Shown here one piece after another: positions 6,717 through 59,335 of a stretch of 64,000 nt of DNA. This DNA comes from an uncultured Pseudomonadales bacterium (GTDB lineage: Bacteria; Patescibacteriota; Microgenomatia; UBA1400; MFAQ01): assembly GCA_964513845.1 (NCBI GenBank), contig CAZENT010000003.1, forward strand, positions 70,809-134,808. The letters run 5' to 3'. Position 1 is the first letter of the stretch. Each line of letters opens with the position of its first letter. The translations under genes and the position numbers were made by a program. Under the pieces are notes generated by a model. It was not told the origin of the DNA. It did not search any database and saw only the letters and a program-made list of their open reading frames with translations.

Positions 6717-6719
6717 CAA

Positions 6720-8655: not shown

Positions 8656-8678
8656 CTTTAGAAGTAAGAAGTTTAAAA

Positions 8679-18419: not shown

Positions 18420-18430
18420 AAAGAAAAATA

Positions 18431-18613
18431 TTTCTCCTTTTCCTCTTTTGTCACTTAGTATTTTATGACGTCGCCAGTAGCGACCGTCGGTTCCTATTTT
18501 CTTGATTCTCGTCCGCTCATCGCGTAGACTCGCAGACAGTAGTCTGACATCAAGAAAATTACGGACGTGCGACTCATTGTCATAAAAACTAATTGCCAAA
18601 CGGAAAGAGAAAT
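18431..18613 (+). repeat. intergenic palindromic repeat, family A copy 1 (MITE/REP-like, nested inverted repeats)
   Basis: About 90% identical to the copies at 21047-21229 and 35215-35394. Terminal inverted repeats (ttgtcacttagtattttatgac / gtcataaaaactaa) enclose nested hairpins gtcgc-N4-5-gcgac, ttttcttgat/atcaagaaaa and cagac-agta-gtctg. Confidence 0.8.
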
Positions 18614-18677
18614 GTGAAACTTATTACGGTCTGTTAAACAGCACTCCGAATGAGTGTGTGTGAGTTACAATTGACTC

Positions 18678-20387
18678 ATGCTATTTAAGGAATTTTCTCA
18701 GTATTTGGAAAAGTTGGAAAAGATTTCGTCGAGGCTTTTGATTACTGATGTTTTGGCTGAGTTGATCGAAAAAATGGAGGTTAAGGAAACTAGCAAGGGA
18801 ATATATTTGGTTTTGGGACAGCTGGGTCCTGACTTTGCCAATCAAGAGTTTGGAATGGCTGTAAAAATGGTGATCAGAGCCATTGCTATAGCCACAGAAA
18901 GACCAATTGAAGAAATTACAAAAGCGTACAAGCAAAAAGGTGATTTGGGCCTTCTTTTGGAAGATTTACCTTTTGAAAATGAAAAAAGTGTAAGCCATAG
19001 TTTGAGTGAAATATACGAATATTTATTAGCCCTTGCTCAAGATGGAGGTGCCGGAAGTCAGGATAGAAAGGTAAATAAACTGGCCGAGATGTTTTTGGAA
19101 GTGAGCGCAACAGAGCGAAAATATATTTCGAGAATGGTGGTGGGGAGGTTAAGACTTGGTTTTTCGGCCAAAACGATATTCGACGCTTTATCTCAAATGG
19201 AAAGTGGAAATAAAACCTTGCGTAAAGAACTCGATTCGGTGTTCCAAATTTATCCCGATCCGGGACACATTACAACAGTGGTAAAGGAAAAAGGAATGGC
19301 AGGGCTTGCTGATATTAAGGTTGAGGTGGGAGTGCCTGTGGTACCCGCTCTGTGCCAAAGACTCAACGAGTATGATGAAATCGTAAAGAAGATGAGAGAT
19401 CTTGCGGTTGAGAGAAAATTCGATGGAACTCGTCTGCAAATTCACTTTAATAGACTAAAGAACGAGGTAAAGACATTTACTAGAAACTTGGAAGAAAACA
19501 GCTGGATGTTTCCTGAGCTTTTGGAGATGGGAAAGTGGACAAAAGCAGATAAGTTAATTATGGATTGTGAAGCGGTTGGTTATGATAAGGCAACGCAGAA
19601 AGTGGTTCCCTTTCAACTAACCATGACGCGAAAGCGAAAACATAATATTGGAAATGCGGCGGAGGCGGTGCCGATTAGATTTTTTACCTTTGATATTTTA
19701 AGTTTGGATGGAGAGAGTTTGATCGATAAACCATATTTTGAAAGAAGAGAACTGCTGACTAAAGCAATACTGCCAAATGATGTGATTGTAGTTGATGAGT
19801 ACGTTCGTGTGGATGAGCCAAGTGAAGTAATGAAGTTTCACAGACAGTACTTGGCTGAGGGTTATGAGGGAGCCGTGATGAAAGTGTGGAATGGCAAGTA
19901 TTTGCCTGGTAGACAAGGTTGGAACTGGGTAAAAATAAAAGAGGTTGAGGGTACTTCAGGAAAACTTTCTGACACTTTGGACCTTGTTGTTTTGGGATAT
20001 TACTATGGACGAGGAAAAAGAGCCGGGTTTGGAATTGGAGCATTTTTGGTCGGACTTAAAAAAGGTGAGTCTTGGGTATCGATTGCGAAAATTGGAACGG
20101 GCTTAACAGATGATGAGTTTAGAAGTTTAAAGAAGAACCTCGAGGAGCTGGAGCTTAAAGGAAAACCAGAAAATTACATGGTGGAGGGGACTTTGTTGGC
20201 TGATGTCTGGGTATCTCCCAAAATTGTAGTTGAGGTGGCCGCGGATGAGGTTACCGTAAGTAGTGTTCATGCCGGAGGAATCGCCCTTCGTTTCCCTCGC
20301 CTTGTGAGATTCCGAGAAGACAAAGGTGCAGATCAATCGACAACCTGGAAAGAAGTAGAAGAGATAGCGAAAATCTCTAAAGTATAA
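18678..20387 (+). CDS. ATP-dependent DNA ligase (archaeal/eukaryotic Lig-type)
   Basis: KFDGTRLQIH adenylation motif I (KxDG), later nucleotidyltransferase motifs and an OB-fold tail, at 569 aa. Confidence 0.85.
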   Translation: MLFKEFSQYLEKLEKISSRLLITDVLAELIEKMEVKETSKGIYLVLGQLGPDFANQEFGMAVKMVIRAIAIATERPIEEITKAYKQKGDLGLLLEDLPFENEKSVSHSLSEIYEYLLALAQDGGAGSQDRKVNKLAEMFLEVSATERKYISRMVVGRLRLGFSAKTIFDALSQMESGNKTLRKELDSVFQIYPDPGHITTVVKEKGMAGLADIKVEVGVPVVPALCQRLNEYDEIVKKMRDLAVERKFDGTRLQIHFNRLKNEVKTFTRNLEENSWMFPELLEMGKWTKADKLIMDCEAVGYDKATQKVVPFQLTMTRKRKHNIGNAAEAVPIRFFTFDILSLDGESLIDKPYFERRELLTKAILPNDVIVVDEYVRVDEPSEVMKFHRQYLAEGYEGAVMKVWNGKYLPGRQGWNWVKIKEVEGTSGKLSDTLDLVVLGYYYGRGKRAGFGIGAFLVGLKKGESWVSIAKIGTGLTDDEFRSLKKNLEELELKGKPENYMVEGTLLADVWVSPKIVVEVAADEVTVSSVHAGGIALRFPRLVRFREDKGADQSTTWKEVEEIAKISKV

Positions 20388-20398
20388 GGTATGATTTA

Positions 20399-21040
20399 TT
20401 GATGGAAATAATTAAATACATTATCGATTTCTTTTTGCACATCGACAAAAATTTGGCGATTGTGATTGCACAGTACGGAACTTTGACCTATGTAATTTTA
20501 TTTGGAATAATTTTTATGGAAACGGGATTGGTGGTAACGCCTTTTCTTCCCGGAGACTCACTGCTTTTTGCAGCAGGAGCTTTGGCGGCGATGGGGTCAT
20601 TGAAAGTTGGATTTCTTTGGGTGCTGATGGTGGTCGCTGCAATACTGGGAGACACAGCAAACTACTGGATTGGACACAAGCTAGGGCGAGATGTTTTTGA
20701 TGGGAGAAGCCGATTTTTTAAAAAAGAATACTTGGATGAGGCTGAAGAGTTTTATGCCAAACATGGAGGGGCGGCAATATTTCTTGGACGCTTTGTGCCG
20801 ATTGTTCGCACCTTTGTACCCTTTGTGGCTGGGGTAAGTGAGATGAGCTATAAACATTTTATTACTTACAATATCATTGGCGGTTTGACTTGGGTTAGTT
20901 TGTTTCTTTTGGGAGGATTCTGGTTTGGAAACATCCCATTTGTTAAAGAAAACTTTCATTATGTCGTTATCATCATCGTTTTGATTTCTGTGGTGCCAAT
21001 TGTTTGGACGGCGATGAAGAGGAAGATGAAGAAGAAATAG
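20399..21040 (+). CDS. DedA/SNARE-associated family membrane protein
   Basis: VTPFLPGDSLLFAAGALAA motif and 4-5 TM helices. Confidence 0.75.
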   Translation: MMEIIKYIIDFFLHIDKNLAIVIAQYGTLTYVILFGIIFMETGLVVTPFLPGDSLLFAAGALAAMGSLKVGFLWVLMVVAAILGDTANYWIGHKLGRDVFDGRSRFFKKEYLDEAEEFYAKHGGAAIFLGRFVPIVRTFVPFVAGVSEMSYKHFITYNIIGGLTWVSLFLLGGFWFGNIPFVKENFHYVVIIIVLISVVPIVWTAMKRKMKKK

Positions 21041-21046
21041 AATATT

Positions 21047-21229
21047 CCTTCTTTTCTATTATTTGTCATTTAGTATTTTGTGACGTCGCCAGGGCGACCG
21101 TCGGTTCCTATTTTCTTGATTCTCGTCCGCTCATCGCGTAGACTCGCAGACAGTAGTCTTGCCATCAAGAAAATTACGGACGTGCGACTTATTGTCAAAA
21201 ATACTAAATTGCCAAACGAAAAGAGAAAT
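21047..21229 (+). repeat. intergenic palindromic repeat, family A copy 2
   Basis: Aligns end to end with copies 1 and 3. The hairpin loop differs (gtcgcc-ag-ggcgac) while the stem is kept. Confidence 0.8.
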
Positions 21230-21304
21230 ATTTAACTCTACTGTGAATTGCGGACTTTTTCTTGAGGAATAACTTATTTTTGTGAGCTGATGCTAGAATG
21301 AATT

Positions 21305-22240
21305 ATGGTTTGGAATATTTTAATGGGATTAGGATTGCTGCTGTTGATCGTTTTATCTTCAGGGGTAGTGGTTGATGTGTTTGAAAGATTTGTGATGAGA
21401 CTTCCAATAAAAAGAAATAGAATAACGATGATTCTCATTGGGTTCTCTTTGGCTTTGCCTGAACTGTTTGTAGGAATAGCGGCCGCACTTGACGGAAAAC
21501 CACAGATGGCTTTGGGAACTGTTGTTGGCGCAAACATGGCAAATCTGAGTTTAATTATCGGAGGTCTGGCTGTAATCGCTGCGGTAATCCCTGTGGTGGG
21601 TGAGTACGTGGAAAAAGACTTGTGGGTGACTGTTGGGCTAGCACTAATGCCATTTTTAATGCTTTTTGACGGAACAATTACAAAACTCGAGGGTGGAGTG
21701 TTGATTGTGCTTTACTTTGTATACGCTCTTTTCCTTTCAAATGAAAAAGTAATCGCAAAACAATCGAAGACTAAAATTACCGGTTTTGAGAAGTGGGGAT
21801 TGCCTGTAGTGCTGATACTAGGTGTTTTGATAATGGCAGTTTGTTCTTGGCAATTGGTCCAAATAGCAGTGAGAATTGCAGCTGTTTGGGGGGTGAGTTG
21901 GTTTTGGATGGGATTGCTTTTAATCGCGTTCGGAACAACCTTGCCGGAGTTGCTTTTAATTTCATTTTCTAGAAAAAAACATAAAGCAAGTTTGGCATTA
22001 CCCGACTTACTTTCGAGCGTAGTGATGAACTCAACCGTAATTTTGGGAATAGTGGCTCTAATTACTCCAATAATAATTAAAGAGTCGGTACAAAGAGGCT
22101 TGTCGGGAATGTTTTTGGTGATTATCCTCGGGTTGTTTTGGTTATTTACCAAGTCGAAAAAGAAACTAGAAAGATGGGAGGGGGTAGTCCTGATCGGAGC
22201 TTACTTGATGTTTATCGGACTACAGTTTATTTTTGCTTAA
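21305..22240 (+). CDS. Ca2+/cation antiporter (CaCA family, YrbG-like sodium/calcium exchanger)
   Basis: Two internal repeats each with the alpha-repeat signature (GANMANLS..., GTTLPELLLIS) and about 10 TM helices. Confidence 0.7.
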   Translation: MVWNILMGLGLLLLIVLSSGVVVDVFERFVMRLPIKRNRITMILIGFSLALPELFVGIAAALDGKPQMALGTVVGANMANLSLIIGGLAVIAAVIPVVGEYVEKDLWVTVGLALMPFLMLFDGTITKLEGGVLIVLYFVYALFLSNEKVIAKQSKTKITGFEKWGLPVVLILGVLIMAVCSWQLVQIAVRIAAVWGVSWFWMGLLLIAFGTTLPELLLISFSRKKHKASLALPDLLSSVVMNSTVILGIVALITPIIIKESVQRGLSGMFLVIILGLFWLFTKSKKKLERWEGVVLIGAYLMFIGLQFIFA

Positions 22241-22243
22241 CAG

Positions 22244-23107
22244 CTAATCGTCACTTTCTTCAAGACTGAGAAGAGCTTTTATTTGGTTCAAAATACTCTT
22301 CCTGGGTTTTCTTTTAATAAAGACTTTTTGGAGATTCTTGAAGAAATCGGAAGTGGGATTGGCTTTTTCTAGATATTCACCACCCATGGGGTATTCTTTT
22401 TTTTGATCAACTTTCTGATTGGTCATAATCTTTAGATTAAGGATGGCATATCTTTGAAGGAGTTTAAGAGTGCCAATTTTGCGAAAGCGTCTTAAGGAAT
22501 AAACATAGCGAGGTTCACGAATAACAGAGAAAGAAAAGCCCTTATTATATCCACGGCGGACAAATTCAGTGTCTTCAGCAAAGCCAACTTCAGGATTAAA
22601 GCCTCCAATTTTGCCAAAGCGTTTTCGGAGACAACCAATCATGGCTCCGAGTGCTCCAGGAGTCCCAACCATTAGACCTGTTTCGGTAAGAAGGTTGAGA
22701 TAAGTGGCAATTGCTTTGTCAGATCTACGTTTAGAGTCCGGTAATATCCAGGTGGTGAACAAATCGCTTTGTTTGACTCCTAGGTGGTATTTGACGCCTT
22801 CAAGAAAGTGTTTTGGAAGACGATTGTCGGCATCGTTGAACATTAGATACTTTCCAACTCCGGCTTCACCACCCATATTTCTTTGAACTGAGACATTCCT
22901 GATTTTTGAATTTAGAATAGTGAGAGAAGGAAGGGTGTCTTTATAGTTTTTAGCGTATTCAACAGTTTTATCTTTGGAGTGGCCATCAACGACAATGACT
23001 TCAAAATCTTGAAGTGTTTGTGCCGCTAAATCTTTGAGAAGAAGGGGTAGAGATTTTTCTTCGTTTAGGCAGGGTATTACAATGGAAAAAAATGGTTCTT
23101 TATTCAT
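22244..23107 (-). CDS. glycosyltransferase family 2
   Basis: FSIVIPCLNEE...VIVVDGHSKDKT N-terminal GT-A motif and a DxD-like region. Confidence 0.75.
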   Translation of the reverse strand: MNKEPFFSIVIPCLNEEKSLPLLLKDLAAQTLQDFEVIVVDGHSKDKTVEYAKNYKDTLPSLTILNSKIRNVSVQRNMGGEAGVGKYLMFNDADNRLPKHFLEGVKYHLGVKQSDLFTTWILPDSKRRSDKAIATYLNLLTETGLMVGTPGALGAMIGCLRKRFGKIGGFNPEVGFAEDTEFVRRGYNKGFSFSVIREPRYVYSLRRFRKIGTLKLLQRYAILNLKIMTNQKVDQKKEYPMGGEYLEKANPTSDFFKNLQKVFIKRKPRKSILNQIKALLSLEESDD

Positions 23108-23126
23108 AGACTGATAGAATTATAGT

Positions 23127-23657
23127 ATGTATTTAATTGTTGGACTAGGTAACCCAGGTGAAGATTACGAAAAGACGCGACACAACGCAGGATTTTTGTT
23201 TGTAAATAAATTAGCCGGAAAAGAGAATTTTTCTGTTGACCAAAAAAAGGAAGCAGAGATGTTGAAGAAGGGTGAAATGATTTTGGCCAAGCCATTTACC
23301 TTTATGAATGACTCGGGAAGATCAGTGCGTAAGATTGTGGATTTTTATAAATTGCCAGTTGAAAAAGTAGTGATAGTTCACGATGATTTGGACATTGCCT
23401 TTGGTGAGTATAAGATTCAAAAAGAAGTGGGACCAAAAGTACACAATGGTGTGAAGTCAGTCGAACAGTATTTGGGAAGAAAAGACTTTTTGCGAGTGAG
23501 AATTGGAATTGATAATCGTCAACCTGACGTGAGCTATGGAACAGGCGCAGATTATGTTTTGTCTAAAATGAGCAAGGATGAGTTAAAGGAGATTGATGAA
23601 ACGATTGAAGAGATAGTAAAAGATTTAGCGGAAACTCTCGGCTTGAATATCAAATAA
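23127..23657 (+). CDS. pth: peptidyl-tRNA hydrolase
   Basis: MYLIVGLGNPGEDYEKTRHNAGF N terminus, at 176 aa. Confidence 0.9.
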   Translation: MYLIVGLGNPGEDYEKTRHNAGFLFVNKLAGKENFSVDQKKEAEMLKKGEMILAKPFTFMNDSGRSVRKIVDFYKLPVEKVVIVHDDLDIAFGEYKIQKEVGPKVHNGVKSVEQYLGRKDFLRVRIGIDNRQPDVSYGTGADYVLSKMSKDELKEIDETIEEIVKDLAETLGLNIK

Positions 23658-25430
23658 CTCTTTGTAGCGCCCCTTTTTGGCCATGAGATTCTCGTGGGTA
23701 CCGTACTCGACAACAGAGCCTTCTTCAAGAACCAAGATTTTGTCTGCTTTTCTGACAGTACTAAATCGATGAGAAACTAAAAAGATAATTTTTTCTTTGG
23801 CCACCTTTAGAACTTGAGTAAATATTTCTTCTTCCGATTGTGGGTCAACATTTGAAGTCGGTTCGTCGAGAATAAGAACTTCAGAAGGGCGATAAAGAAT
23901 GCGAGCAAGAGCGACTCTTTGCCAGAGCCCTTTGGATGGCTCAACACCATTTTTGAACTCCTTATCAAGTGGATTTTTGAAGCCTAATGGCAGTGACTCG
24001 ACAAAGTCAGTAATGCCGGTGAGCTTGGCGGCATGCTTAATTTTGCGCAAACTCTTCTTCTGAGAGATGTCTCCAAAACGAATATTGTCTTCAACAGAGA
24101 AAGGATATTGGGCAAAGTCTTGAAAAAGAGCCGAAAACTTAAAGCGATACTCTTTGATGTTGTAATCAGCGATGTTTTTACCATTGATAAGGATAATTCC
24201 TTTTTGGGGTTCGTAAAAACGACAAATGAGTTTGATTAGAGTAGTTTTGCCCGCTCCGTTTTGACCAACGATGGCAATGTTGTCGGTAGGATCAATTTTG
24301 AAGGAAACATCTTTGAGAATCCAGTTTTTTGACTGAGGGTACTTGAAATATACATGTTGGAACTCGATACCCTGATCTAGCTTTTCCGGAAAATGAATTC
24401 CTGTGTTTTGGTTTTCTTCAGGCAGAGCCATAAAAGTTTCGTAGTCAATAATGAATAGATAGTTTTGAAAGATGTCATTGGCCTGTCTGATTAAACGACT
24501 AACACTACTAATGAAACGATTAATGGCTTGGCTGGTAATTTGAGCTGTACCGAGAGTAATGACCTGAATAATGGCAAGATAGTAGAGATAAAGCCTTGTA
24601 CTTGTTTCAAACACAGAAAGAGGAAGGGAGGCAAGCTGGCGTTTTTTGGCGAAGTTGGCACTAAGACTTTGACGTCTGCCAAAAATTTCCTTGGCCATTT
24701 TGAAACGCCTTGTAAGTAGGATTTCTACATGACCGAGAATTTTATTTTCATAGAGATAGCGACCCTTGATGGCAAAGTCTTCGAGAGCGCTCCAAACTCG
24801 CCATTTTGGTGAAAATTCAGTGGAAAGAGCGTGCTGCGCCTTGGAAAAACCAACACCAATGATAATGTTGGGGACAGCCAGAATAATACAAGGAATGATA
24901 ATAAGAGGTTCAAAGGTGAGAATTGGAATGGCAGTAGAAATGATAGTAAGTAATAGTTCGGGGAAGGTGGAAATAGGAATGATAAGAGACCAGGCTGAAC
25001 GACCAGCGTTGTCGATAACTTTTTGAAGGATATTTCTGGTTTCGGGGTCTTCGGCGGTGGAAACTGGAAGAAGATTGATTTTTCTGGAGATAGAGATTTG
25101 AATTTTTTCGGAAAGAAGGTTTGAAAGCTGACCACTATAAACATTGTCTACCTCTTCGAGAATTTGTTGAACTCGATCAATAACAAGAGCAATTGCGGCT
25201 GAAATAATCATGCCTCTAATACCCGCACTGATGTCGTGAGTGGTAATAGCACTCATAACGGAGTCAATGAGAAGCTTACCAACCAACAAACTGGGATAGA
25301 CGAGAGCACCATTAAGAGCGTTGGCGAGAGTAACTTTGAGAAAGACTGATTTATCGGTGGCCCAGGCAATTTTTACGGTAGAAGAATAGGTCTTGATAAA
25401 CTCTTTGGCGTTTTGTAGAAGTTTGGGCAT
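23625..25430 (-). CDS. ABC transporter, fused permease/ATP-binding (exporter type)
   Basis: N-terminal 6-TM domain, then Walker A GQNGAGKTTL, a degenerate signature LSKGLWQRVALAR and Walker B ILDEPTSNVD. Confidence 0.8.
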   Translation of the reverse strand: MPKLLQNAKEFIKTYSSTVKIAWATDKSVFLKVTLANALNGALVYPSLLVGKLLIDSVMSAITTHDISAGIRGMIISAAIALVIDRVQQILEEVDNVYSGQLSNLLSEKIQISISRKINLLPVSTAEDPETRNILQKVIDNAGRSAWSLIIPISTFPELLLTIISTAIPILTFEPLIIIPCIILAVPNIIIGVGFSKAQHALSTEFSPKWRVWSALEDFAIKGRYLYENKILGHVEILLTRRFKMAKEIFGRRQSLSANFAKKRQLASLPLSVFETSTRLYLYYLAIIQVITLGTAQITSQAINRFISSVSRLIRQANDIFQNYLFIIDYETFMALPEENQNTGIHFPEKLDQGIEFQHVYFKYPQSKNWILKDVSFKIDPTDNIAIVGQNGAGKTTLIKLICRFYEPQKGIILINGKNIADYNIKEYRFKFSALFQDFAQYPFSVEDNIRFGDISQKKSLRKIKHAAKLTGITDFVESLPLGFKNPLDKEFKNGVEPSKGLWQRVALARILYRPSEVLILDEPTSNVDPQSEEEIFTQVLKVAKEKIIFLVSHRFSTVRKADKILVLEEGSVVEYGTHENLMAKKGRYKELFDIQAESFR

Positions 25431-25451
25431 GTAGTTTTATTTTACGTTAAA

Positions 25452-25757
25452 ATGCACGTAATGGATAAAGCTGGTTTCAAACCAATGATAAATATTTTGG
25501 ATAAGTATGATCTGGAAGAAACAAAACAGAGAAGAATTAGTCGCGAGTTTCAAGATTATGCTTATCGACTGGCGGTAGAGCTAGACGACACCGCTCACAC
25601 GGCTATCTATATGCGACTAGCAAAAAATACGCCAAGACCCGTAATTGAACAAGCTAGATTGTTTGTGTTGGGAGCAAACCATCCGACCAGTAAGGGAAAA
25701 CTATTTATGTGGAAACTGAAGCAAATTAAAGACGAGAATAAGGCTAAGGAGAAATAA
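25452..25757 (+). CDS. hypothetical protein
   Basis: ORF of 101 aa with no recognisable motif. Confidence 0.3.
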   Translation: MHVMDKAGFKPMINILDKYDLEETKQRRISREFQDYAYRLAVELDDTAHTAIYMRLAKNTPRPVIEQARLFVLGANHPTSKGKLFMWKLKQIKDENKAKEK

Positions 25758-25781
25758 CACTTTTGATAAGATGAATGGCAG

Positions 25782-27035: not shown

Positions 27036-27061
27036 TGCGGATTGTGTATGATTAAAGAAGA

Positions 27062-27616: not shown

Positions 27617-27661
27617 GATCTATTTGACTTGTGAGGTTTTTTGATATACCATGGGGGGTAT

Positions 27662-27889
27662 ATGTCAATAGAAGAAAAAAAGAAATTGCAGGTAATGCTA
27701 AAAAGAATTCAGGGGCAGGTAGGGGGAATTGAGCGAATGGTGGGAGATGATAAAAATTGTGAAGCAGTGGTGACCCAGGTGGTGGCCTCAATGAGTTCAC
27801 TTAAGAGCGTAGCAAAGACTTTATTGGCCGACGCGGTTGGTAGTTGTTCAAAAGAAGAATATACTAAATTGTTGAAGAGATTTCTTTAA
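27662..27889 (+). CDS. metal-sensing transcriptional repressor, CsoR/RcnR/FrmR (DUF156) family
   Basis: Four-helix-bundle-sized protein with conserved Cys/His positions (DKNCEAV...GSC) as in CsoR-family sensors. Start moved to MSIEEKKK. Confidence 0.5.
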   Translation: MSIEEKKKLQVMLKRIQGQVGGIERMVGDDKNCEAVVTQVVASMSSLKSVAKTLLADAVGSCSKEEYTKLLKRFL

Positions 27890-27918
27890 AAATTATTAAT
27901 AAATATAAACAAAAAAAT

Positions 27919-28242
27919 ATGGAATTAGTTCACTTTACAGATGCAAATTTTGACGAAATGGTTTTGAAAGCAGAAAAACCTGTCCTGGTTGATTTTTTTG
28001 CCGATTGGTGTGGACCATGTAGAATGGTCGCCCCGGTGATTGAAGAGATTGCAAAAAATTATGGTGAGAAAATGATTGTGGGCAAGGTTGATGTGGATGC
28101 CAATTCCGGTGTGGCCGGAAAGTACGGAGTTATGAGTATTCCAACAGTCGTTTTATTTGTAGGAGGAAAAGAAGTGTCTCGACAGGTCGGTTTCGGTGGA
28201 AAAGAAGTTTATGAAGAAATGGTTAAAAAAACCGTTAAATAA
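27919..28242 (+). CDS. trxA: thioredoxin
   Basis: WCGPC active site, at 107 aa. Confidence 0.85.
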   Translation: MELVHFTDANFDEMVLKAEKPVLVDFFADWCGPCRMVAPVIEEIAKNYGEKMIVGKVDVDANSGVAGKYGVMSIPTVVLFVGGKEVSRQVGFGGKEVYEEMVKKTVK

Positions 28243-28246
28243 ATAG

Positions 28247-29227
28247 ATGAAGAAATACGACGTAATTGTAGTTGGAGGAGGTCCAAGTGGCTATACCAGT
28301 GCAATTTATTTAGGCAGAGATACCTTGTCGGTATTGGTTTTGGCTGGGGCACAACCAGGAGGTCAACTAATCTTCACAACCGAAGTAGAGAACTTTCCTG
28401 GATTTTCTAAGGGGATAATGGGACCAGACTTGATGATGGAAATGGAAGCTCAGGCAAAAAGATTCGGAGCGGAAGTGCTGTATTCTGAAGTGACCAAAGT
28501 TGATCTTGCTGGAAAAGTTAAAAAAGTATGGGTTGGAGAAACTGAGTATGAAGCCAAAGCGGTAGTCATTTCAACCGGAGCGTCATCAAAAATGATCGGT
28601 GTCGGAGAAGAAGCGTATGTTGGTCGTGGAGTAAGCACGTGTGCTGTTTGCGATGCAGCTTTCTATAAAGGTAAAAAAACTTTTGTTGTGGGTGGCGGGG
28701 ATGCGGCAATGGAAGACGCAATGGCCCTCACAAAATTTGCTGATGAGGTAACGATTGTCCATCGCAGAGATGAGTTTAGGGCCAGTAAAATTATGCAAGA
28801 ACGCGTACTTTCTAACCCTAAAGTAAAGGTGATGTGGAATAGTGAGGTTGTTGGAATTGCAGGAGAACCAAAACTTTCATCAATTAAAGTGAAGAATGTG
28901 AAGACAAATATCGTTACTGAGCATCAGTTGGATGGATTGTTTGTCGCTATTGGTCATGTGCCAACGACAAAACTATTTGAAGGAAAACTAGAATTAAACG
29001 AAAAAGGATATTTAACAACGACAATGACAGCTTTGATGTCCGACATTAAATGGAGAGTATCGGAAAAAGACATGTATCTGGATGGCTATCCTACAATGAC
29101 TTCCATGGAAGGAGTTTTTGGTTGCGGGGATGTGGTGGATTATCGATATCGACAAGCAATCACAGCAGCTGGAATGGGATGCCAGGCAGCGTTGGACGTA
29201 GAAAAATGGTTAGCAGATCAAAAATAA
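28247..29227 (+). CDS. trxB: thioredoxin-disulfide reductase
   Basis: FAD motif VIVVGGGPSG, redox-active CAVCDA and an NADPH motif. Confidence 0.9.
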   Translation: MKKYDVIVVGGGPSGYTSAIYLGRDTLSVLVLAGAQPGGQLIFTTEVENFPGFSKGIMGPDLMMEMEAQAKRFGAEVLYSEVTKVDLAGKVKKVWVGETEYEAKAVVISTGASSKMIGVGEEAYVGRGVSTCAVCDAAFYKGKKTFVVGGGDAAMEDAMALTKFADEVTIVHRRDEFRASKIMQERVLSNPKVKVMWNSEVVGIAGEPKLSSIKVKNVKTNIVTEHQLDGLFVAIGHVPTTKLFEGKLELNEKGYLTTTMTALMSDIKWRVSEKDMYLDGYPTMTSMEGVFGCGDVVDYRYRQAITAAGMGCQAALDVEKWLADQK

Positions 29228-29237
29228 AATTCCTAAC

Positions 29238-30983
29238 TTGACCGAGAACGATATTACTATGAGCATTAAACAAACATTAAGAGAGGCGATTGTAGAATTA
29301 GCTTTGGGCAAAGAATTTACGGTGGAACATCCAGCAGATGAAAAGATGGGTGACTATTCTACAAATATTGCCATGGTTTTGGCAAAAGAGCTTCAGAGAA
29401 ACCCGAGAGAGTTGGCGGTGGATTTGGTGGGAAAGTTGGAAAAAAATGTAAATTTGGAAACCATTGTAGAAAAAATGGAAGTGGCTGGACCAGGATTTAT
29501 AAACTTTTATCTAAGAAATGATTTTCTTTTGAATGAGATGAAAGAAGTACTTCTAGAAAAAGAAAACTATGGTCGAAATGAAGCACTGTTGCAAAAAAAA
29601 GTGATAGTGGAGTATACAGATCCGAATCCGTTTAAACAGTTCCACATTGGCCATTTGATGAGTAATGCTATAGGAGAGTCTTTGTCTCGCTTGTTGGAGT
29701 TTCAAGGAGCTGTTTTGAAACGGGCAAACTACCAAGGAGATGTTGGGCTTCATGTGGCGAAGTGTATTTATGGACTGAGAGAGTTGTTTTCTGAGAAAAG
29801 TATCGATGTTGATGATTTGGCTAAATTGAGTTTGGATAATCGAGTGAAGTTTATGGGGGATGCTTATGTACGTGGAGCAAAAGAGTATGAAGAAATGGAA
29901 AAAGTGAAGACGGATATTGATGAGCTTAATAGAGTTATTTATAATAGAGAAGATGAAAAAGTAAACATCGTTTATGACTTGGGAAGAAAATGGAGCTTGG
30001 AGTATTTTGAAGTGGTATATAAAAAATTAGGAACGAAGTTCGACGAATATTTTTTTGAGAGTGAGATGAGTGAGGTGAGTCTTGGGCTGGTGGTCGAGTA
30101 TCTGATAAAAGGAGTGTTTGAGGAAAGTCAGGGGGCGGTAATTTTTGATGGGGAAAAATACGGATTACACACTAGAGTTTTTAAAAACAAGATGGGCTTG
30201 CCCACTTATGAGGCAAAAGAATTAGCACTGATTCGCGCTAAATTTGAGAGATTTAATTATGACAAATCAGTGATTGTGACGGCAAATGAAATCAATGAGT
30301 ATTTTAAGGTTTTGTTGAAAGCGGCCAGCTTTATCTATCCTGATTTGGCAGAAAGAACAGTTCATATTGGCCATGGCATGCTAAGGTTAAAAAACGGCAA
30401 AATGTCTTCCAGAACAGGACAGGTAGTGACAGGTGAAAGTTTGATGGCTGAAGTGAGTGACGAAATTTTGAAAAAAATGGAAGAATCGGGCAGAGGAAAA
30501 GAAATAAAAGATCTTGAAAGTGTGATTATGAAAGTGGCTATCGGGGCGATAAAGTACTCAATGCTCAAACAAAGTCCAGGGAAAGATATCTCTTTTGATT
30601 TTGAAACGTCGTTGTCTTTTGAGGGAGATAGCGGCCCATATCTACAGTACGCTTATGCAAGATCGATGAGTGTATTGGAAAAGGCAGGGAATAAAGAAAT
30701 TGAGTTGAAAAATATCACAACATTAACGAGTGAAGAGAAGAATTTACTGAGATGGATTTATCGATTCCCAGAGATGGTAGAAGTGGCGGGGAATAATTTA
30801 TCACCTAACTTGATTTGTTCTTACCTAATTGAACTATCGTCGAGATTTAATCTCTTTTACGCCAATTGTAAAATAGTAGGAACTGACTCGGAAATGTTTA
30901 GATTATCTTTGACAAAAGCGATGGCTCAAGTACTTTCAAATGGATTGTGGCTTTTGGGAATTGAGACAGTGGAGAAGATGTAA
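29238..30983 (+). CDS. argS: arginyl-tRNA synthetase
   Basis: TDPNPFKQFHIGH (HIGH), ArgRS-type catalytic core and a C-terminal DALR anticodon-binding region, at 581 aa. Confidence 0.85.
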   Translation: MTENDITMSIKQTLREAIVELALGKEFTVEHPADEKMGDYSTNIAMVLAKELQRNPRELAVDLVGKLEKNVNLETIVEKMEVAGPGFINFYLRNDFLLNEMKEVLLEKENYGRNEALLQKKVIVEYTDPNPFKQFHIGHLMSNAIGESLSRLLEFQGAVLKRANYQGDVGLHVAKCIYGLRELFSEKSIDVDDLAKLSLDNRVKFMGDAYVRGAKEYEEMEKVKTDIDELNRVIYNREDEKVNIVYDLGRKWSLEYFEVVYKKLGTKFDEYFFESEMSEVSLGLVVEYLIKGVFEESQGAVIFDGEKYGLHTRVFKNKMGLPTYEAKELALIRAKFERFNYDKSVIVTANEINEYFKVLLKAASFIYPDLAERTVHIGHGMLRLKNGKMSSRTGQVVTGESLMAEVSDEILKKMEESGRGKEIKDLESVIMKVAIGAIKYSMLKQSPGKDISFDFETSLSFEGDSGPYLQYAYARSMSVLEKAGNKEIELKNITTLTSEEKNLLRWIYRFPEMVEVAGNNLSPNLICSYLIELSSRFNLFYANCKIVGTDSEMFRLSLTKAMAQVLSNGLWLLGIETVEKM

Positions 30984-31000
30984 ACTGGTAAAATAAACGC

Positions 31001-32476
31001 ATGGCAAGCAGACTTGAAGAAATACTTAAAGAACGAGAAAAGAAGATAGAAACCCTGAAAAAAATGGGGATTGATTTGTATCCGGCACGCTCTATAAAAG
31101 AAGCTGCCAATAGAGAAGTAGTGGAAAACTTTGAAAAATATGAAGGAAAAACGCTTACTTTAGCCGGAAGAATCATGGCTTGGAGAGAGCACGGTAAACT
31201 AATTTTTGGACAAATTCAAGATCAATCAGGGAAGATTCAGCTTTTTATTCGCGACGATATGATGGCAAAAGCAGACAAAGCTAAACAGACTTTGGGCTTT
31301 GAAGAACTGGACCTTTTGGATATTGGTGACATTATTCAAACCACCGGAGAAGTGGTGAAAACCAGAACAGGTGAAGTATCGATTCAGGTAAAAGAAATAA
31401 AAATATTGACTAAGTCTCGATTACCTCTGCCCGAAAAATGGACCGGCATTGTGGATCCTGATGAGGCTTTTAGAAAAAGATATTTAGATTTGTTGATGAA
31501 TCCAGAAAAAATTGCCAGATTTGAACGAAAGGCAAAGTTTTGGGCTGAGTGCAGATCATTTATGGCCTCCAAAGGATTTATCGAAGTGGAAATGCCAGTA
31601 CTGGAAGCTGTAACAGGAGGAGCAGATGCCAAGCCGTTTGTAACTCACATGAATGCCATCGATCAGGATTTTTACATGAGAATTTCGACAGAACTGTATC
31701 AAAAAAGATTGATTGGAGCCGGATTTGAAAAAATCTACACCTTGGCACCAAATTTCCGCAATGAAGGTATGGATGATGAACATCTGCCTGAGTATTACTC
31801 CTTGGAGTGGTACTGGGCCTATGCTGACTATCGAGACAATATGCAGTTAACTCGTGAACTTTACCGACATGTGGCAAAAGCGGTGTATGGAAAGACAAAA
31901 TTTGTAAGTCGTGGCATGGAGTATGACTTGGCTGATGATTGGAAGGAACTCGATTATCTAAAAGTGATTAAAGAAACAATTGGAATTGATATTGTGAACT
32001 CGACGGATGCTGAGATGATTGAAGCCATCAAAAAGGCCGGAGTGAAATTGACGGGAGAGATTAACAGAGCACGCCTGATAGATAACTGTTGGAAAATAGT
32101 TCGCAAAACGATTGCCGGACCAGCGTTCCTTCTCAATGAGCCCAAATTTATGTCCCCTCTGGCCAAGAGTAAAGCAGAAGATCCGACAATTACCGAGAGA
32201 TTCCACATTATTTTGGCCGGATCTGAACTTGGTAATGGCTATTCAGAACTCAATGATCCTGTGGACCAGAAAGAGAGATTTGAAGAGCAAGAAAAGGCCA
32301 GAGAAAAAGGTGATGAAGAGTCCCAGATGATGGATACTGATTTTTTGGAGATGCTTTCTTACGGAATGCCACCAACGTCAGGATTTGGAATGTCGGAGCG
32401 ACTATTTTGGTTTATGGAAGATGTTTCCGCTCGTGAGGGAACGTTATTTCCACCGCTTCGAACAAAGAAAGATTAA
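31001..32476 (+). CDS. lysS: lysyl-tRNA synthetase, class II
   Basis: N-terminal OB anticodon-binding domain, class II motifs including FRNEG, at 491 aa. Confidence 0.9.
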   Translation: MASRLEEILKEREKKIETLKKMGIDLYPARSIKEAANREVVENFEKYEGKTLTLAGRIMAWREHGKLIFGQIQDQSGKIQLFIRDDMMAKADKAKQTLGFEELDLLDIGDIIQTTGEVVKTRTGEVSIQVKEIKILTKSRLPLPEKWTGIVDPDEAFRKRYLDLLMNPEKIARFERKAKFWAECRSFMASKGFIEVEMPVLEAVTGGADAKPFVTHMNAIDQDFYMRISTELYQKRLIGAGFEKIYTLAPNFRNEGMDDEHLPEYYSLEWYWAYADYRDNMQLTRELYRHVAKAVYGKTKFVSRGMEYDLADDWKELDYLKVIKETIGIDIVNSTDAEMIEAIKKAGVKLTGEINRARLIDNCWKIVRKTIAGPAFLLNEPKFMSPLAKSKAEDPTITERFHIILAGSELGNGYSELNDPVDQKERFEEQEKAREKGDEESQMMDTDFLEMLSYGMPPTSGFGMSERLFWFMEDVSAREGTLFPPLRTKKD

Positions 32477-32492
32477 AGGTGTTGGATGATTG

Positions 32493-32531
32493 TTGTCAAA
32501 GCTTGACAAAGATTGTCAATTGAAGTATAGT
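32493..32531 (+). promoter_or_regulatory. sigma70-like promoter (TTGACA-17-TATAGT) overlapped by the palindrome TTGTCAAagcTTGACAA, a likely antitoxin operator
   Basis: Consensus -35 and -10 hexamers with a 17-nt spacer lie directly upstream of the RHH gene. A perfect 7-nt inverted repeat overlaps the -35. Confidence 0.5.
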
Positions 32532-32537
32532 ATCAAC

Positions 32538-32828
32538 ATGGCAATGATGAATGTTTCGCTACCAGAAAAACAAATTCAAGACGTCGACCTGATGGTGGAA
32601 AAATATGGTTATGCAAATAGAAGTGAGTTTGTAAGATCTGCCTTAAGGTTTGTGTTAAAAAATAAAGTTGTTTCTGATGAAATGACTAGTTTCCCTTTCT
32701 TGGTGGCTAACCCTCTTGATAAACCAGAAGACGTTGTTAAGGATTTTCGAGATACTGGAAAATATAACGAAGAATTTCTTAAAGATTTGGAAGTTGGTTT
32801 AAAGAAAAGTGAGACGCTAAAAAGATAA
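32538..32828 (+). CDS. ribbon-helix-helix (CopG/ParD-like) antitoxin, paralog of 61234-61521
   Basis: N-terminal RHH segment (MNVSLPEKQIQDVD...NRSEFVRSALRF) and strong similarity to the second copy in this window. Confidence 0.6.
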   Translation: MAMMNVSLPEKQIQDVDLMVEKYGYANRSEFVRSALRFVLKNKVVSDEMTSFPFLVANPLDKPEDVVKDFRDTGKYNEEFLKDLEVGLKKSETLKR

Positions 32829-33085
32829 ATGTTTGAAGTTTTACCACTAAGGAAAGATCTGGTGATGGTGCTGAAAAAAAATATGGATTGGAACGTAAGT
32901 TTGAGAAACAAATGACCTATCTTCGTGAAAATCCTAAACATCCAAGCTTAAATCTTGAATTGATGGAGCCAAAGAGCAGAAGACTTTATAGCATCAGAAT
33001 TGATCGACAGTATCGTGCCTTGCTTAAGTTTTTGCCTGATAAAGAAAGTATTGAAATTATATTGATAACAAACCACTATCATTAA
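32829..33085 (+). pseudogene. RelE/ParE-superfamily toxin, frameshifted in a poly-A run (paralog of 61522-61773)
   Basis: Frame A (MFEVLPLRKDLVMVLKKN...) stops after 28 codons. Frame B continues KKYGLERKFEKQMTYLRENPKHPSLNLELMEPKSRRLYSIRIDRQYRALLKF, matching the intact paralog. The shift maps to an A8 tract at about 32873-32880. Confidence 0.45.
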
Positions 33086-33087
33086 GG

Positions 33088-33096
33088 TTGTATAAT
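33088..33096 (+). promoter_or_regulatory. extended -10-like promoter element TTGTATAAT
   Basis: Near-consensus -10 hexamer with TG upstream, about 10 nt before the start of a terminated structured segment. Confidence 0.35.
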
Positions 33097-33102
33097 AAAA
33101 TA

Positions 33103-33240
33103 ATAAGTGAATTGCTTTGGTGATCCGACTACCAATCGGGGAAAAGCAGGGGGTGAGCACCAACGCTCTGTATTAAGAGGCTACCTAGCAAGCAAGATGG
33201 AACCGTCCGAAAGGACTCTTGCAAGAAGGGTAGTTTTTTT
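33103..33240 (+). ncRNA. candidate small structured RNA or 5' leader ending in an intrinsic terminator (ggctacc...gggtag + T7)
   Basis: Promoter-like box followed by about 138 nt containing a GNRA hairpin (gtcc-gaaa-ggac) inside a long stem closed by ctacc/ggtag and TTTTTTT. It lies upstream of the B1 repeat and thrS. Confidence 0.25.
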
Positions 33241-33288
33241 GTTATTAACAAATTATTGATACAAGAACTTCGTTGTATCTATTTGAAA

Positions 33289-33390
33289 AACCGAACGCTA
33301 TTTGGCCTGCGCCAAATTCGTTCTTGTTTGCAGTCAAAAACTTTTTGAATACAAAAAGACCGGGCTTTTTGACTTGCGCAATATTTTTCA
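33289..33390 (+). repeat. structured repeat family B, copy 1 (upstream of thrS)
   Basis: Hairpin 1 is atttggc-ctgc-gccaaat. Hairpin 2 has outer stem gtcaaaaa/tttttgac and inner stem ctttttg-aata-caaaaag, with a bulge accgggc and a tail ttgcgcaatattttt. Stems covary with the other copies. Confidence 0.8.
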
Positions 33391-33430
33391 AATCAGATAA
33401 CAACTGCAGTTCTTTAATTATTTAAACAAA

Positions 33431-35197
33431 ATGGAAGAGCAAAAACTAAATGCACTTAGACATAGTGCCGAACATATATTAACTCAGGCGATGGAGAAGC
33501 TTTGGCCTGGCATAATACTTAAAGCCATGGGGCCTTCAATTGAGACCGGGTTTTATTTTGACTTTGATACCACAAATGGCTTCAAAGTAACTGAAGCAGA
33601 TTTTCCCAAGATTGAAAAAGAGATGAAAAAGATAGTGCAACTCAATTTGCCTTTTGAAAAATTCATAGTAACAGCGGAAGAGGCCAGAAAGATGTTCGCT
33701 GATAATCCATATAAACAAGAGTGGATTGAAAAAGCGGAAAAAGAGGGAGAAGAAATTTCGGTTTACTGGACTGGTGACCCTGGAAAGGGTGGCTCGTTTG
33801 TAGATGTTTGTGCCGGACCTCATGTGGCCAGAACAATTGAAGTTAAAGTCTTTAAACTCTTGTCGATTGCGGGAGCTTACTGGCACGGTGATGAAAAAAA
33901 CAAGATGCTTACCAGAATCTATGGGACGGCTTTTGAAACACAGGAAGAGCTGGATAAATATGTGTCACTTTTGGAAGAAGCCAGGAAACGCGATCATAGA
34001 AAACTAGGAAAAGAGATGGATTTGTTTTCTTTTTCGGACTTGATTGGCAGCGGATTACCTCTTTATTCTCCCAAAGGTGCTTTCATAAGACGAACGCTAA
34101 ATAATTTTGTAGAAGAGATGCAGATTGCTGAAGGATATACCCAGGTCTGGACACCTCAAATTGCAAAAGCAGATCTGTTTAAAACTTCAGGTCACTATGA
34201 CAAATACAAGGACTCGATGTTCCGAGTAGTTTCCAATTACTCCGACGAAGAGATGTTTCTTAAGCCGATGAACTGTCCACAACATACACAAATTTTTGCG
34301 GCACAGAGTCGAAGCTATCGAGATTTACCTTTGCGCCTGACTGACTTTGCAATGCTTTATCGTGATGAAAAACCGGGTGAGCTATCTGGCCTTGCTCGAG
34401 CAAGAGCTTTCTCACAAGATGATTGTCATATTTTTTGCCGTGAAGATCAGGTGGATGCAGAAATTGATATGGCTTTGCAGATGACGAAGAAAATTATGAG
34501 CACTTTTGGATTTAAGTATAAATACAGACTTTCAACTCGTGACCTTCAACATCCGGAAAAATATTTGGGGGATCCTAAGATTTGGGATAAAGTAGAAAAA
34601 TGGGCGGAAGTAATCATGGAAAGAAACGGTATTGAGTACTTCCAAGGACCCGGAGAAGCGGCTTTTTATGCTCCTAAAATGGATTTGATTGCAACCGATG
34701 CCTTGGGAAGAGAGTGGCAGCTATCAACAGTACAAATTGACTTTGTGATGCCTGAGCGATTTGGATTGGTATATACCGATCAAGATGGAACCCAGAAACA
34801 TCCAGTAATGCTTCATCGAGCTATTATCGGTTCGGCTGAACGCATGATGATGATTCTCATCGAACATTTTGGTGGGGCTTTTCCAACATGGCTATCACCA
34901 ACTCAAGTAACAATCTTGCCTATTTCTGAGAAGACTATGGAGTATTCCGAAGGTGTTAATAAAAAACTGCTGGAAAAAGGGATTCGAGTTGAGCTAAATC
35001 GTGATGCTGATTCTCTGGGAAAGAAAATCCGCAATGCAGAAGCTTCGAAAGTGCCTTACATGTTAATCATTGGTGAAAAAGAAGCGGAGGCAAAAGAAGT
35101 GTCTGTGCGTCAACGTGGTCAGAAAGATTTGGGGTCAATGACTGTGGCTGATTTTGCTGAGAAGATAGCTAAAGAGATTGAGGAGAAAAGTTTATAG
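33431..35197 (+). CDS. thrS: threonyl-tRNA synthetase (no N-terminal TGS domain)
   Basis: Begins at the editing / second additional domain (HSAEHIL), then class II catalytic motifs and a C-terminal anticodon-binding domain, at 588 aa. Confidence 0.9.
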   Translation: MEEQKLNALRHSAEHILTQAMEKLWPGIILKAMGPSIETGFYFDFDTTNGFKVTEADFPKIEKEMKKIVQLNLPFEKFIVTAEEARKMFADNPYKQEWIEKAEKEGEEISVYWTGDPGKGGSFVDVCAGPHVARTIEVKVFKLLSIAGAYWHGDEKNKMLTRIYGTAFETQEELDKYVSLLEEARKRDHRKLGKEMDLFSFSDLIGSGLPLYSPKGAFIRRTLNNFVEEMQIAEGYTQVWTPQIAKADLFKTSGHYDKYKDSMFRVVSNYSDEEMFLKPMNCPQHTQIFAAQSRSYRDLPLRLTDFAMLYRDEKPGELSGLARARAFSQDDCHIFCREDQVDAEIDMALQMTKKIMSTFGFKYKYRLSTRDLQHPEKYLGDPKIWDKVEKWAEVIMERNGIEYFQGPGEAAFYAPKMDLIATDALGREWQLSTVQIDFVMPERFGLVYTDQDGTQKHPVMLHRAIIGSAERMMMILIEHFGGAFPTWLSPTQVTILPISEKTMEYSEGVNKKLLEKGIRVELNRDADSLGKKIRNAEASKVPYMLIIGEKEAEAKEVSVRQRGQKDLGSMTVADFAEKIAKEIEEKSL

Positions 35198-35214
35198 AGG
35201 CCTGACAAAATATC

Positions 35215-35394
35215 TCTCCTTTTCCTCTTTTGTCATTTAGTATTTTATGACGTCGCAAAAGCGACCGTCGGTTCCTATTTTCTTGATTCTCGCCCGCTCA
35301 TCGCGTAGGCTCGCAGACAGTAGTCTGAAAATCAAGAAAATTACGGACGTGCGACTCATTGTCAAAAATACTAAATGCCAAACGGAAAGAGAAA
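35215..35394 (+). repeat. intergenic palindromic repeat, family A copy 3
   Basis: About 90% identical to copies 1 and 2, with a hairpin variant gtcgc-aaaa-gcgac. It lies between thrS and tyrS. Confidence 0.8.
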
Positions 35395-35457
35395 TTTTTT
35401 TCTATTGGACTAGTACATAGAAACGAACAATATCGATATAGATGAACCACGCCTAGA

Positions 35458-59295: not shown

Positions 59296-59335
59296 TTCTA
59301 TTTCTTTCTTTCCTCTTTTGTCACTTAGTTTAGTC
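59296..59335 (+). repeat. partial family A 5' end (tttctttcctcttttgtcacttagt...)
   Basis: Matches the first ~35 nt of family A, then diverges into family B copy 4. Confidence 0.5.

Follow-up and report, generated by a model that had tools for sequence, protein, structure and literature searches.

The DNA considered here is a 64,000-nucleotide stretch of contig CAZENT010000003.1 (hereafter the window), whose nearest group, judged by threonyl-tRNA synthetase (ThrRS) homologues, is Candidatus Collierbacteria of the Candidate Phyla Radiation (CPR, Patescibacteria). Its intergenic spacers contain a nested-palindrome element, termed family A, for which an original prediction, made from the sequence alone, had proposed three copies of about 90% identity and a truncated fourth. 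The three copies are borne out with slightly wider boundaries, and the fourth is a real match to the left end of the element. The copies and their flanking genes, scored in part with a covariance model (R1) built from five family A copies, are the following:

18427..18613, + strand: full copy c1 (blastn; R1 211.7 bits; minimum free energy -61.1 kcal/mol, z = -6.4)
18417-18419 and 18678, + strand: c1 flanks, stop codon of a Fic-domain gene and ATG of an ATP-dependent DNA ligase gene
21042..21229, + strand: full copy c2 (blastn; R1 200.8 bits; fold z = -4.5)
21038-21040 and 21305, + strand: c2 flanks, stop codon of a VTT/DedA gene and ATG of a Na/Ca-exchanger gene
35209..35395, + strand: full copy c3 (blastn; R1 221.9 bits; fold z = -8.0)
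35195-35197 and 35476, + strand: c3 flanks, stop codon of thrS and probable ATG of tyrS, preceded by a TACAAT box
59299..59329, + strand: 31-nt fragment of the left end of family A (blastn identity 90% across its length, E 4e-6)

The Pfam assignments of the three gene pairs (Fic > ATP-dependent DNA ligase, VTT/DedA > Na/Ca exchanger and ThrRS > tyrosyl-tRNA synthetase (TyrRS), all on the + strand) agree with the single orientation and the co-directional flanking genes described originally. The family is 185-189 nt long, typically ~187 nt, and the pairwise identity of c1-c3 amounts to 89-94% by blastn and 86-93% in the model-based alignment, with c2 as the most diverged copy of the window (86% to both c1 and c3). 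The left-end fragment contains the 18-mer core CCTCTTTTGTCACTTAGT as an exact match (18/18), for which 0.17 matches per window are expected by chance; a search of the window with the right end matched only the three full copies, with nothing at 59.3 kb. A complete copy of a second palindromic family, B, at 59374-59531, begins 44 nt beyond the fragment.

Four further copies of family A were found in assemblies of relatives. Two of them, identified by the R1 search, occupy the Fic > ligase junction as positional orthologues of c1 (L013, 1714-1899, on a Ga0209373 contig, and L012, 9868-10052). The other two, both complete and both co-oriented with their neighbouring genes, were located through invariant 20-mers: one has a single occurrence among 185,579 species-representative genomes, between VanW and TsaD (L001), and the other a single occurrence in the Joint Genome Institute (JGI) metagenomes, between Sua5 and an open reading frame (ORF) (L002, on a Ga0180007 contig). 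L001, L006 and L012 belong to GCA_035477615.1 (contigs DATIKJ010000030.1 and DATIKJ010000051.1). This public metagenome-assembled genome carries the label 'Spirochaetia bacterium', which looks wrong, since it has the gene order of the Collierbacteria window and encodes a ThrRS 90% and a ligase 79% identical to those found there. The R1 scan of the window and of about 200 kb of relatives' DNA revealed no new copy beyond the two more diverged ones in L013 and L012.

Family A, which is rare worldwide, is thus known from seven full copies; these occupy five junctions and come from at least three genomes. All seven are intergenic, none lying in-frame within a coding gene; they start 3-60 nt past a stop codon, end 32-80 nt ahead of the next start codon and are co-oriented with both neighbouring genes (7/7).

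Regarding the architecture, every inverted repeat quoted in the original prediction is present, namely the terminal pair TGTCAYTTAGTATTTTRTGAC / GTCAWAAAWACTAAWTGCCA, GTCGC-loop-GCGAC, TTTTCTTGAT / ATCAAGAAAA and CAGAC-AGTA-GTCTG. Both the terminal and the nested repeats occur in all full copies, and the palindrome reaches further outward than had been described, through an outer stem that is CT-rich on one side and GA-rich on the other (TTTCTCCTTTTCC / GGAAAGAGAAA). Including this stem, the terminal inverted repeats measure ~40 nt, and their inner 21 nt match at 19/21 positions (TGTCATTTAGTATTTTATGAC versus TGGCATTTAGTATTTT-TGAC). The reported variation of the GTCGC loop likewise holds, the loop reading CAGTA, CAGG or AAAA depending on the copy while the stem is retained. 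The parts of c1, and the end motifs of the family, are arranged as follows:

18435..18469, + strand: left terminal inverted repeat (CT-rich outer arm 18435-18443, then TGTCACTTAGTATTTTATGAC at 18449-18469), pairing with 18579-18610 in the consensus structure (helices 1-2)
18470..18484, + strand: hairpin GTCGC-CAGTA-GCGAC with the variable loop
18496..18559, + strand: long inner arm, ATTTTCTTGAT ... ATCAAGAAAAT (helices 6-8 of the consensus)
18511-18529, + strand: inner hairpin GTCCGC-TCATC-GCG..GAC
18533-18546, + strand: inner hairpin CAGAC-AGTA-GTCTG
18579..18610, + strand: right terminal inverted repeat (GTCATAAAAACTAATTGCCA at 18579-18598, then GA-rich GGAAAGAGA at 18602-18610)
End motifs of family A: TTTCTCCTTTTCCTCTTTTGTCAYTTAGT / ACTAAATGCCAAACGGAAAGAGAAA

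The fold of each copy is a single long, imperfect hairpin whose core branches in a Y shape. The folding energies of c1-c3 range from -54 to -64 kcal/mol (z = -4.5 to -8.0), values as low being reached by 0/200 shuffles, and the reverse strand of the element folds equally well. Over the seven copies, a 66-pair consensus structure shows standard pairs in 95% of the alignment cells. Changes on both sides occur at 9 pairs (15 cells), a level reached by 0/500 shuffles, and only 0-1 two-sided pairs are obtained in a control in which the pairing partners are slid by 1-3 columns. These compensatory changes are spread over four inner helices: GTCGC/GCGAC becomes GTCAC/GTGAC in relatives (pair 48/56 passing from G-C to A-U in L001, L002 and L012), TTTTCTTGAT/ATCAAGAAAA becomes TTTTATTGAC/GTCAATAAAA, and CAGAC/GTCTG becomes CAGCC/GGCTG and CGGGC/GCCTG. 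Five compensatory pairs lie in the inner arm region (71/136, 76/131, 81/126, 87/103 and 111/118). Furthermore, variable columns are more frequent among unpaired than among paired positions (20/58 versus 20/132, p = 0.004), a comparison that is partly circular, as the structure was predicted from the same sequences. An absence of copies or of conserved structure in relatives had been named originally as a ground for abandoning the family; the four additional copies and the compensatory pairs show the opposite.

The mismatches bear on which molecule is constrained, as G.T is tolerated only if the + strand folds and A.C only if the other strand folds. Family A contains 7 G.T versus 9 A.C among 459 cells (about 1.5% of cells), and family B 4 G.T versus 6 A.C. 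Since G.T does not exceed A.C, the constrained strand or molecule is not pinpointed by the pairing, and the rare, strand-symmetric wobble fits the upkeep of a DNA palindrome. Against Rfam 15, family A gave no match at the gathering score, the hits to c1 at E<10 being noise (14-16 bits), and the only hits in the window that passed the threshold were two tRNAs. The pairing statistics and the lack of an Rfam match thus offer no positive sign for RNA over DNA as the constrained molecule. The structured-RNA reading put forward originally stands as far as the conserved, compensating structure is concerned; the few wobbles, the lack of strand asymmetry and the Rfam result lend its RNA part no positive support.

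The conservation of the element was compared with that of its surroundings. The copies are 78-96% identical overall, and 78-91% identical between the window and the L001/L012 genome, two genomes whose thrS genes are only 39% identical at fourfold-degenerate sites, i.e., saturated. The spacer DNA directly beside the copies aligns no better than shuffled sequence, and the flanks of different copies share no homology. For the Fic > ligase copy, the pairwise identity among the window, L013 and L012 is 81-85%, which would fit long retention at this junction. The high identity of family A points either to strong selection or to recent movement between and within lineages, and both seem to apply. In addition, the characters of the copies conflict: the core of c2, c3, L001 and L002 has derived states in common with c1 that L012 and L013 lack, yet one hairpin variant and one right-end base unite L001 and L002 with L012, L001 and L012 coming from the same genome. 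Transfer plus gene conversion would be needed to account for this conflict.

The same junctions were inspected in relatives whose ligase is 98% (L009), 88% (L013) or 79% (L012, the outgroup) identical to that of the window and whose ThrRS is 97% (L008) or 92% (L003/L004/L005) identical; L008 and L009 are contigs from Logan sample SRR29243430. At the Fic > ligase junction (site 1), the spacer is empty in L010 (9 nt) and L014 (31 nt), where the stop codon is immediately followed by a TGnGTTACAAT box and the ATG. An unrelated 141-nt spacer is found in L011, and in the closest relative, L009, only the right 40-60 nt of family A are left (L009 4138-4175, 95% identical). At the DedA > CaCA junction (site 2), L014 has a 20-nt spacer and L011 a family B copy, and the L009 contig breaks inside a B copy. 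At the thrS > tyrS junction (site 3), family B is present in L008 and L003/L004/L005 where the window has family A, and directly after c3 the following feature is observed:

35396..35434, + strand: family B remnant, last ~30 nt (~36/39 positions match L008 at about 2028-2066)

The matching L008 segment, 2028-2066, is the 3' end of a family B copy at L008 1905-2059. Judged from these aligned spacers, site 3 is a clean replacement of B by A in which the last ~30 nt of B have been retained, the whole spacer having been exchanged rather than simply received an insertion. The reciprocal case is seen at 59.3 kb: beyond the left-end fragment of A lies a young B copy, intact and sharing 94% identity with another B. 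Remnants of family B beside c1 and c2 were looked for without success, the B model not being significant there (E 0.5-2; z about 1); consequently, a fixed A/B junction is claimed for site 3 only. Among the sequences examined, none contained an orthologue of the site at which the L001 or the L002 copy is inserted. Taking into account that in L010 and L014 the stop codon directly precedes the promoter box, the element is dispensable at those junctions, and as hairpin-free junctions of 9-31 nt function in relatives, a required terminator or insulator, one of the readings of the original prediction, is disfavoured.

Comparison of the window with the SRR29243430 strain also shows a mosaic divergence, the identity at fourfold sites being 89% in the ligase (18678-20387 versus L009) and 74% in thrS (33431-35197 versus L008), which hints at strain-to-strain recombination.

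An extended -10-like TGnnTAnAAT box lies 5-6 nt before the ATG of the downstream gene at all three window junctions (18661-18680, 21291-21307 and 35461-35478) and in relatives (L010 5426-5444; L014 9999-10020 and 12374-12392). A box so near to the ATG indicates that each downstream gene probably has its own promoter just past the element, and it suggests leaderless transcripts, with the promoter directly behind the preceding stop codon. For tyrS, the first in-frame ATG (35458) falls within the box, so that the start at 35476 is the likely one. No TGnnTAnAAT promoter was found ahead of or within family A.

Several other identities were considered and rejected. A promoter inside the element has only chance-level sigma-70-like matches, on the minus strand. 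As for an intrinsic terminator, the expected G+C-rich stem running into a U-tract is absent, the outer stem being A+T-rich, and the terminator scan finds no site at any copy; terminator-like sites in the region are at chance level, and a T-run follows c3 only, as part of the family B remnant. An indel of 1 nt in a loop of c1 interrupts the only open frame, which spans 51-57 codons in c2 and c3; this argues that family A is not coding, and the peptide of this ~50-codon frame has no similar protein among 5.8 billion. The CT-rich left end is not a general motif after stop codons, as it occurs only in A copies. Self-cleaving ribozymes, retrons, attC sites, IS605/IS110 guide-RNA remnants and the T-box (the last since several neighbours are tRNA synthetases) are unsupported by Rfam, adjacent genes or defining motifs.

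Family B, a second, older palindromic family, is more abundant and contests the same spacers. It is a nested palindrome of ~155 nt, and a scan with the model R2 places seven copies in the window, all on the + strand:

33262-33415, + strand: family B copy
46341-46498, + strand: family B copy
56797-56951, + strand: family B copy
59374-59531, + strand: family B copy, beyond the family A fragment
62231-62385, + strand: family B copy
57991-58143 and 60685-60837, + strand: diverged B subfamily, mutually 99% identical

Further copies occur in L003/L004/L005, L008 (two), L009 and L011, and Rfam gave no match for the family either at the gathering threshold or at E<10. Compensatory variation affects 22/40 pairs, and the conserved unpaired motifs are a CCTGCGC loop, an ACCNGGC bulge and TTGCGCAATA. 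The copy at 62231-62385 lies in-frame inside mnmA (tRNA 2-thiouridylase; ORF 61783-63063), where the protein, compared with four solved MnmA structures, shows a 52-residue insertion (residues 149-200) exactly at the B copy. The copy at 60685-60837 is apparently inside an ORF for a TMTC/PMT-type glycosyltransferase-TPR protein (59636-61201), between its DUF1736 and TPR regions, and that at 57991-58143 lies between RimK-like ATP-grasp paralogues (57037-57951 and 58192-59106) and is covered by a 78-codon ORF. In-frame copies inside housekeeping genes mark family B as insertional DNA rather than a dedicated device of 3' untranslated regions. Families A and B share their niche, their orientation, the arrangement of a closing stem with a short 5' hairpin and a long 3' arm, and a wobble-poor pairing; owing to this likeness, the same kind of explanation is the most economical for A.

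A separate 69-nt repeat was observed at 46544-46612 and 54450-54519 (87-90% identical), upstream of leuS and of a seven-transmembrane (7TM)-transglutaminase-like gene. It contains a small hairpin whose loop carries a GCCTGCGC motif, as does the family B loop.

Family A is a discrete, inverted-repeat-bounded unit that occupies differing gene-end spacers across genomes. On balance, we consider that it is probably a non-autonomous palindromic repeated DNA element of ~187 bp, akin to miniature inverted-repeat transposable elements (MITEs), Rickettsia palindromic elements (RPEs) and enterobacterial repetitive intergenic consensus (ERIC) sequences, and specific to a narrow Candidatus Collierbacteria group. 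Like MITEs, it is shorter than ~600 bp and non-coding, has terminal inverted repeats and is present at multiple sites that are filled in some genomes and empty in others. Among the explanations offered originally, the MITE-like one is thus best supported, by the multi-site copies, the filled and empty spacers, the end fragments and the replacement by another family; no clear target duplication and, in the sequences searched, no partner insertion sequence (IS) were found for it.

Under this reading, new copies would be generated at the DNA level, either through copying and insertion or through recombination; the enzyme responsible would act in trans, not being encoded by the element, and the recognised substrate would be the folded palindrome together with its invariant unpaired motifs (e.g., CCGCTNATCGCGTAG and TGCGACTCATTGTCA). 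Copies would land, or would survive only, in the short gap between a stop codon and the next promoter, where a resident family B element may be overwritten by A. Given the constant orientation along transcription, the long hairpin would then ride passively on the 3' end of the upstream mRNA, a carriage that may be tolerated or mildly useful, through protection of the RNA 3' end, without being required.

Several observations weigh against this reading. No convincing target-site duplication was found at the seven copies: a TA dinucleotide stands before the TTTCTC end in 5/7 and after the GAGAAA end in 3/7, within A+T-rich flanks and possibly as part of the palindrome itself, and no filled/empty pair has exact boundaries, so that the check for target duplications proposed originally yields only suggestive TA flanks. 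The search for an autonomous partner was equally negative. Among the window ORFs scanned with Pfam there is no transposase, no REP-associated tyrosine transposase (RAYT) or other partner, and no Y1_Tnp domain. The end motifs occur in the window only in A copies, and no partner with the same ends was found in the about 200 kb of fetched relatives' loci or in IMG/VR viral contigs, in which scans with a core 20-mer and the left end gave no match. The sole tyrosine recombinase in the window is a Xer-like (Xer/phage-type) one at 7112-7987 on the - strand, 10 kb from the element. Furthermore, the co-orientation of 7/7 copies with both neighbours is not needed for a purely DNA-level element, and many unpaired positions are invariant in all seven copies, CCGCTNATCGCGTAG and TGCGACTCATTGTCA among them. 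The Fic > ligase copy has been kept in three lineages with saturated synonymous sites, with structure-preserving changes and as an island of 81-84% identity within an unalignable spacer, which looks like selection at a fixed locus rather than the decay of an old insertion. Finally, the sample of family A consists of only 7 copies.

Three of these observations (the uniform orientation, the retention at the ligase junction and the invariant unpaired motifs) lend weight to the main rival, a host-serving structured RNA at gene 3' ends, acting as a stabiliser, a processing site or a hairpin terminator/insulator for the next, probably leaderless, promoter, and duplicated only secondarily. It would explain why all seven copies run along transcription between a stop codon and the next start, why compensation affects four inner helices with variable columns enriched in unpaired positions (p = 0.004), why the unpaired motifs are invariant, why the Fic > ligase copy persists in three lineages while its flanks are unalignable, and why the downstream genes have their own TGnnTAnAAT promoter just after the element. 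We nevertheless regard this explanation as unlikely, although deserving of attention: the junctions are empty in L010 and L014, the G+C-rich stem with a U-tract is missing and terminator-like sites are at chance level, wobbles are confined to about 1.5% of cells and are not enriched on the transcribed strand, Rfam has no match even at E<10, and the interchangeable family B also inserts within coding sequence. A distinctly unlikely view is that A and B are interchangeable cassettes of a dedicated site-specific system that writes hairpins into stop-to-promoter gaps and occasionally in-frame into genes, or else that A functions as an RNA, in cis, at the ligase promoter and that its extra copies are by-products. 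In the former case a recombinase recognising folded DNA would exchange the core while the junction stays fixed, and thrS > tyrS, with A in place of B as far as GCGCRATA|TTTTT, would be an example; in the latter, the conservation in cis at the ligase promoter would be older than synonymous sites can record.

Family A might also not be mobile itself: A and B would then be alternative spacer alleles shuffled among Collierbacteria strains that take up DNA and integrate it by homologous recombination or gene conversion, and deletions driven by the palindromes would account for the empty sites. The mosaic divergence (89% versus 74% at ligase and thrS fourfold sites), the exchange of the whole spacer at site 3 and the character conflict among copies, suggestive of gene conversion within a genome, are consistent with such shuffling; homologous exchange, however, cannot put the same 187-nt unit between five unrelated gene pairs with non-homologous flanks, and we hold this account to be very unlikely. 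A multi-copy small RNA gene would suit the size of ~150-190 nt, the multi-branch fold, the loop and junction sequences invariant in 7 copies and the constant orientation; its product might be a regulatory RNA acting in trans, or it might guide, in the manner of a 'bridge' RNA, a recombinase or nuclease encoded at another locus. Such a gene is highly improbable, as no TGnnTAnAAT promoter lies before or in the element, no associated protein gene stands beside any copy, Rfam has no match, and the possession of terminal inverted repeats, like the occurrence of end fragments, points more towards a DNA element. The probability of chance similarity or of assembly duplication, the latter raised originally as a possible refutation, is practically nil: the copies differ by 7-14% and have unique flanks, so that they are not assembly duplications, they recur in independent NCBI, JGI and Logan assemblies of other samples, and the end motifs are expected only 0.01-0.17 times per window.

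The genomes of CPR/Patescibacteria are under 1 Mb, tightly packed and generally thought to be poor in repeats and mobile DNA. Here, two palindromic families compete for the same gene-end gaps and differ between strains that are 97-98% identical in protein, and one B copy lies inside an essential tRNA-modification gene. The competition of A and B at one site and the RPE-like in-frame B copy are the most interesting parts of these findings. The repeats offer markers at strain level and a handle on how compact CPR genomes are rearranged. Should the hairpins also influence mRNA 3' ends, they would count among the few known regulatory features of these uncultured bacteria. They also disturb annotation and assembly, as is evident from a miscalled gene and from broken contigs. 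The deposited ligase call of L012 (10001-11824) starts inside the A copy and gives 607 residues versus 569 elsewhere, being 38 codons too long; the conserved ATG is at 10109. The L009 and L008 contigs break inside or beside B copies.

In another part of the window, a tRNA-Ile with anticodon TAT (UAU; unusual in bacteria) at 6643-6717 adjoins the tyrosine recombinase mentioned above. It also lies next to a TraG/VirD4-like coupling protein encoded at 4287-6617, and a second tRNA (tRNA-Met) at 8580-8656, with a similar 57-nt upstream region, flanks these features. The arrangement may represent an integrated element.

Among known systems, RPEs are repeats of ~100-150 nt, folding as long hairpins, that are dispersed over a reduced genome of small size; their hallmark is the in-frame insertion of the palindromic repeat within housekeeping protein genes, and to our knowledge no transposase is known for them. 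Family A resembles them as a hairpin repeat of a reduced genome, and the hallmark insertion is displayed by family B in mnmA. In contrast to A, RPEs have copies in coding sequences; there is no sequence relation, and their host is alphaproteobacterial rather than CPR. Correia elements (Correia repeat enclosed elements, CREE, or Neisseria miniature insertion sequences, NEMIS) and ERIC sequences (also called intergenic repeat units, IRU) are imperfect palindromes of 100-160 nt that lie between genes and are bounded by terminal inverted repeats; they are co-transcribed as RNA hairpins and polymorphic for presence or absence. Family A shares with them the intergenic palindromes, the terminal repeats and the presence or absence among strains. 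Correia elements, however, have a clear TA target duplication, hundreds of copies, a promoter and sites for integration host factor (IHF) and RNase III, whereas family A has 3 copies per 64 kb and 1-2 in relatives, an unproven TA and no promoter that could be found; moreover, Correia and ERIC elements occur in both orientations and family A in one only (7/7).

Classical MITEs, which are deletion derivatives of IS elements, are comparable in being small and non-coding, in their terminal repeats and in their near-identical copies at multiple, filled or empty sites. Family A differs in that a search of the sequences covered for a parent IS sharing its ends was negative and in that its interior is conserved and evolves in a compensatory manner, unlike an IS leftover. 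Repetitive extragenic palindromes (REPs), with their assemblies into bacterial interspersed mosaic elements (BIMEs) and REPINs, are gene-end palindromes that are often co-oriented with transcription, preserve their hairpins and serve as insertion targets for other elements. A REP unit is 20-40 nt long (a REPIN about 100 nt), and its hundreds of copies accompany a REP-flanked RAYT, in contrast to the ~187 nt of family A, its 3 copies per 64 kb and the absence of a RAYT among the window ORFs scanned. Similarly, attC sites are imperfect palindromes at gene 3' ends, oriented with the gene and recognised as folded single strands, with structure conserved above sequence; the copies of family A are highly similar in sequence, their neighbours are syntenic housekeeping genes with their own promoters rather than cassettes, and there is neither an adjacent integron integrase nor an RYYYAAC/GTTRRRY core pair. 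REPs/REPINs, intrinsic terminators, attC sites and the Rfam families can thus all be set aside as identities for family A. Full-text searches of the literature gave no description of such repeats in CPR, and family A is apparently undescribed so far, yet it behaves like the known palindromic repeats of Rickettsia, Neisseria and enterobacteria.

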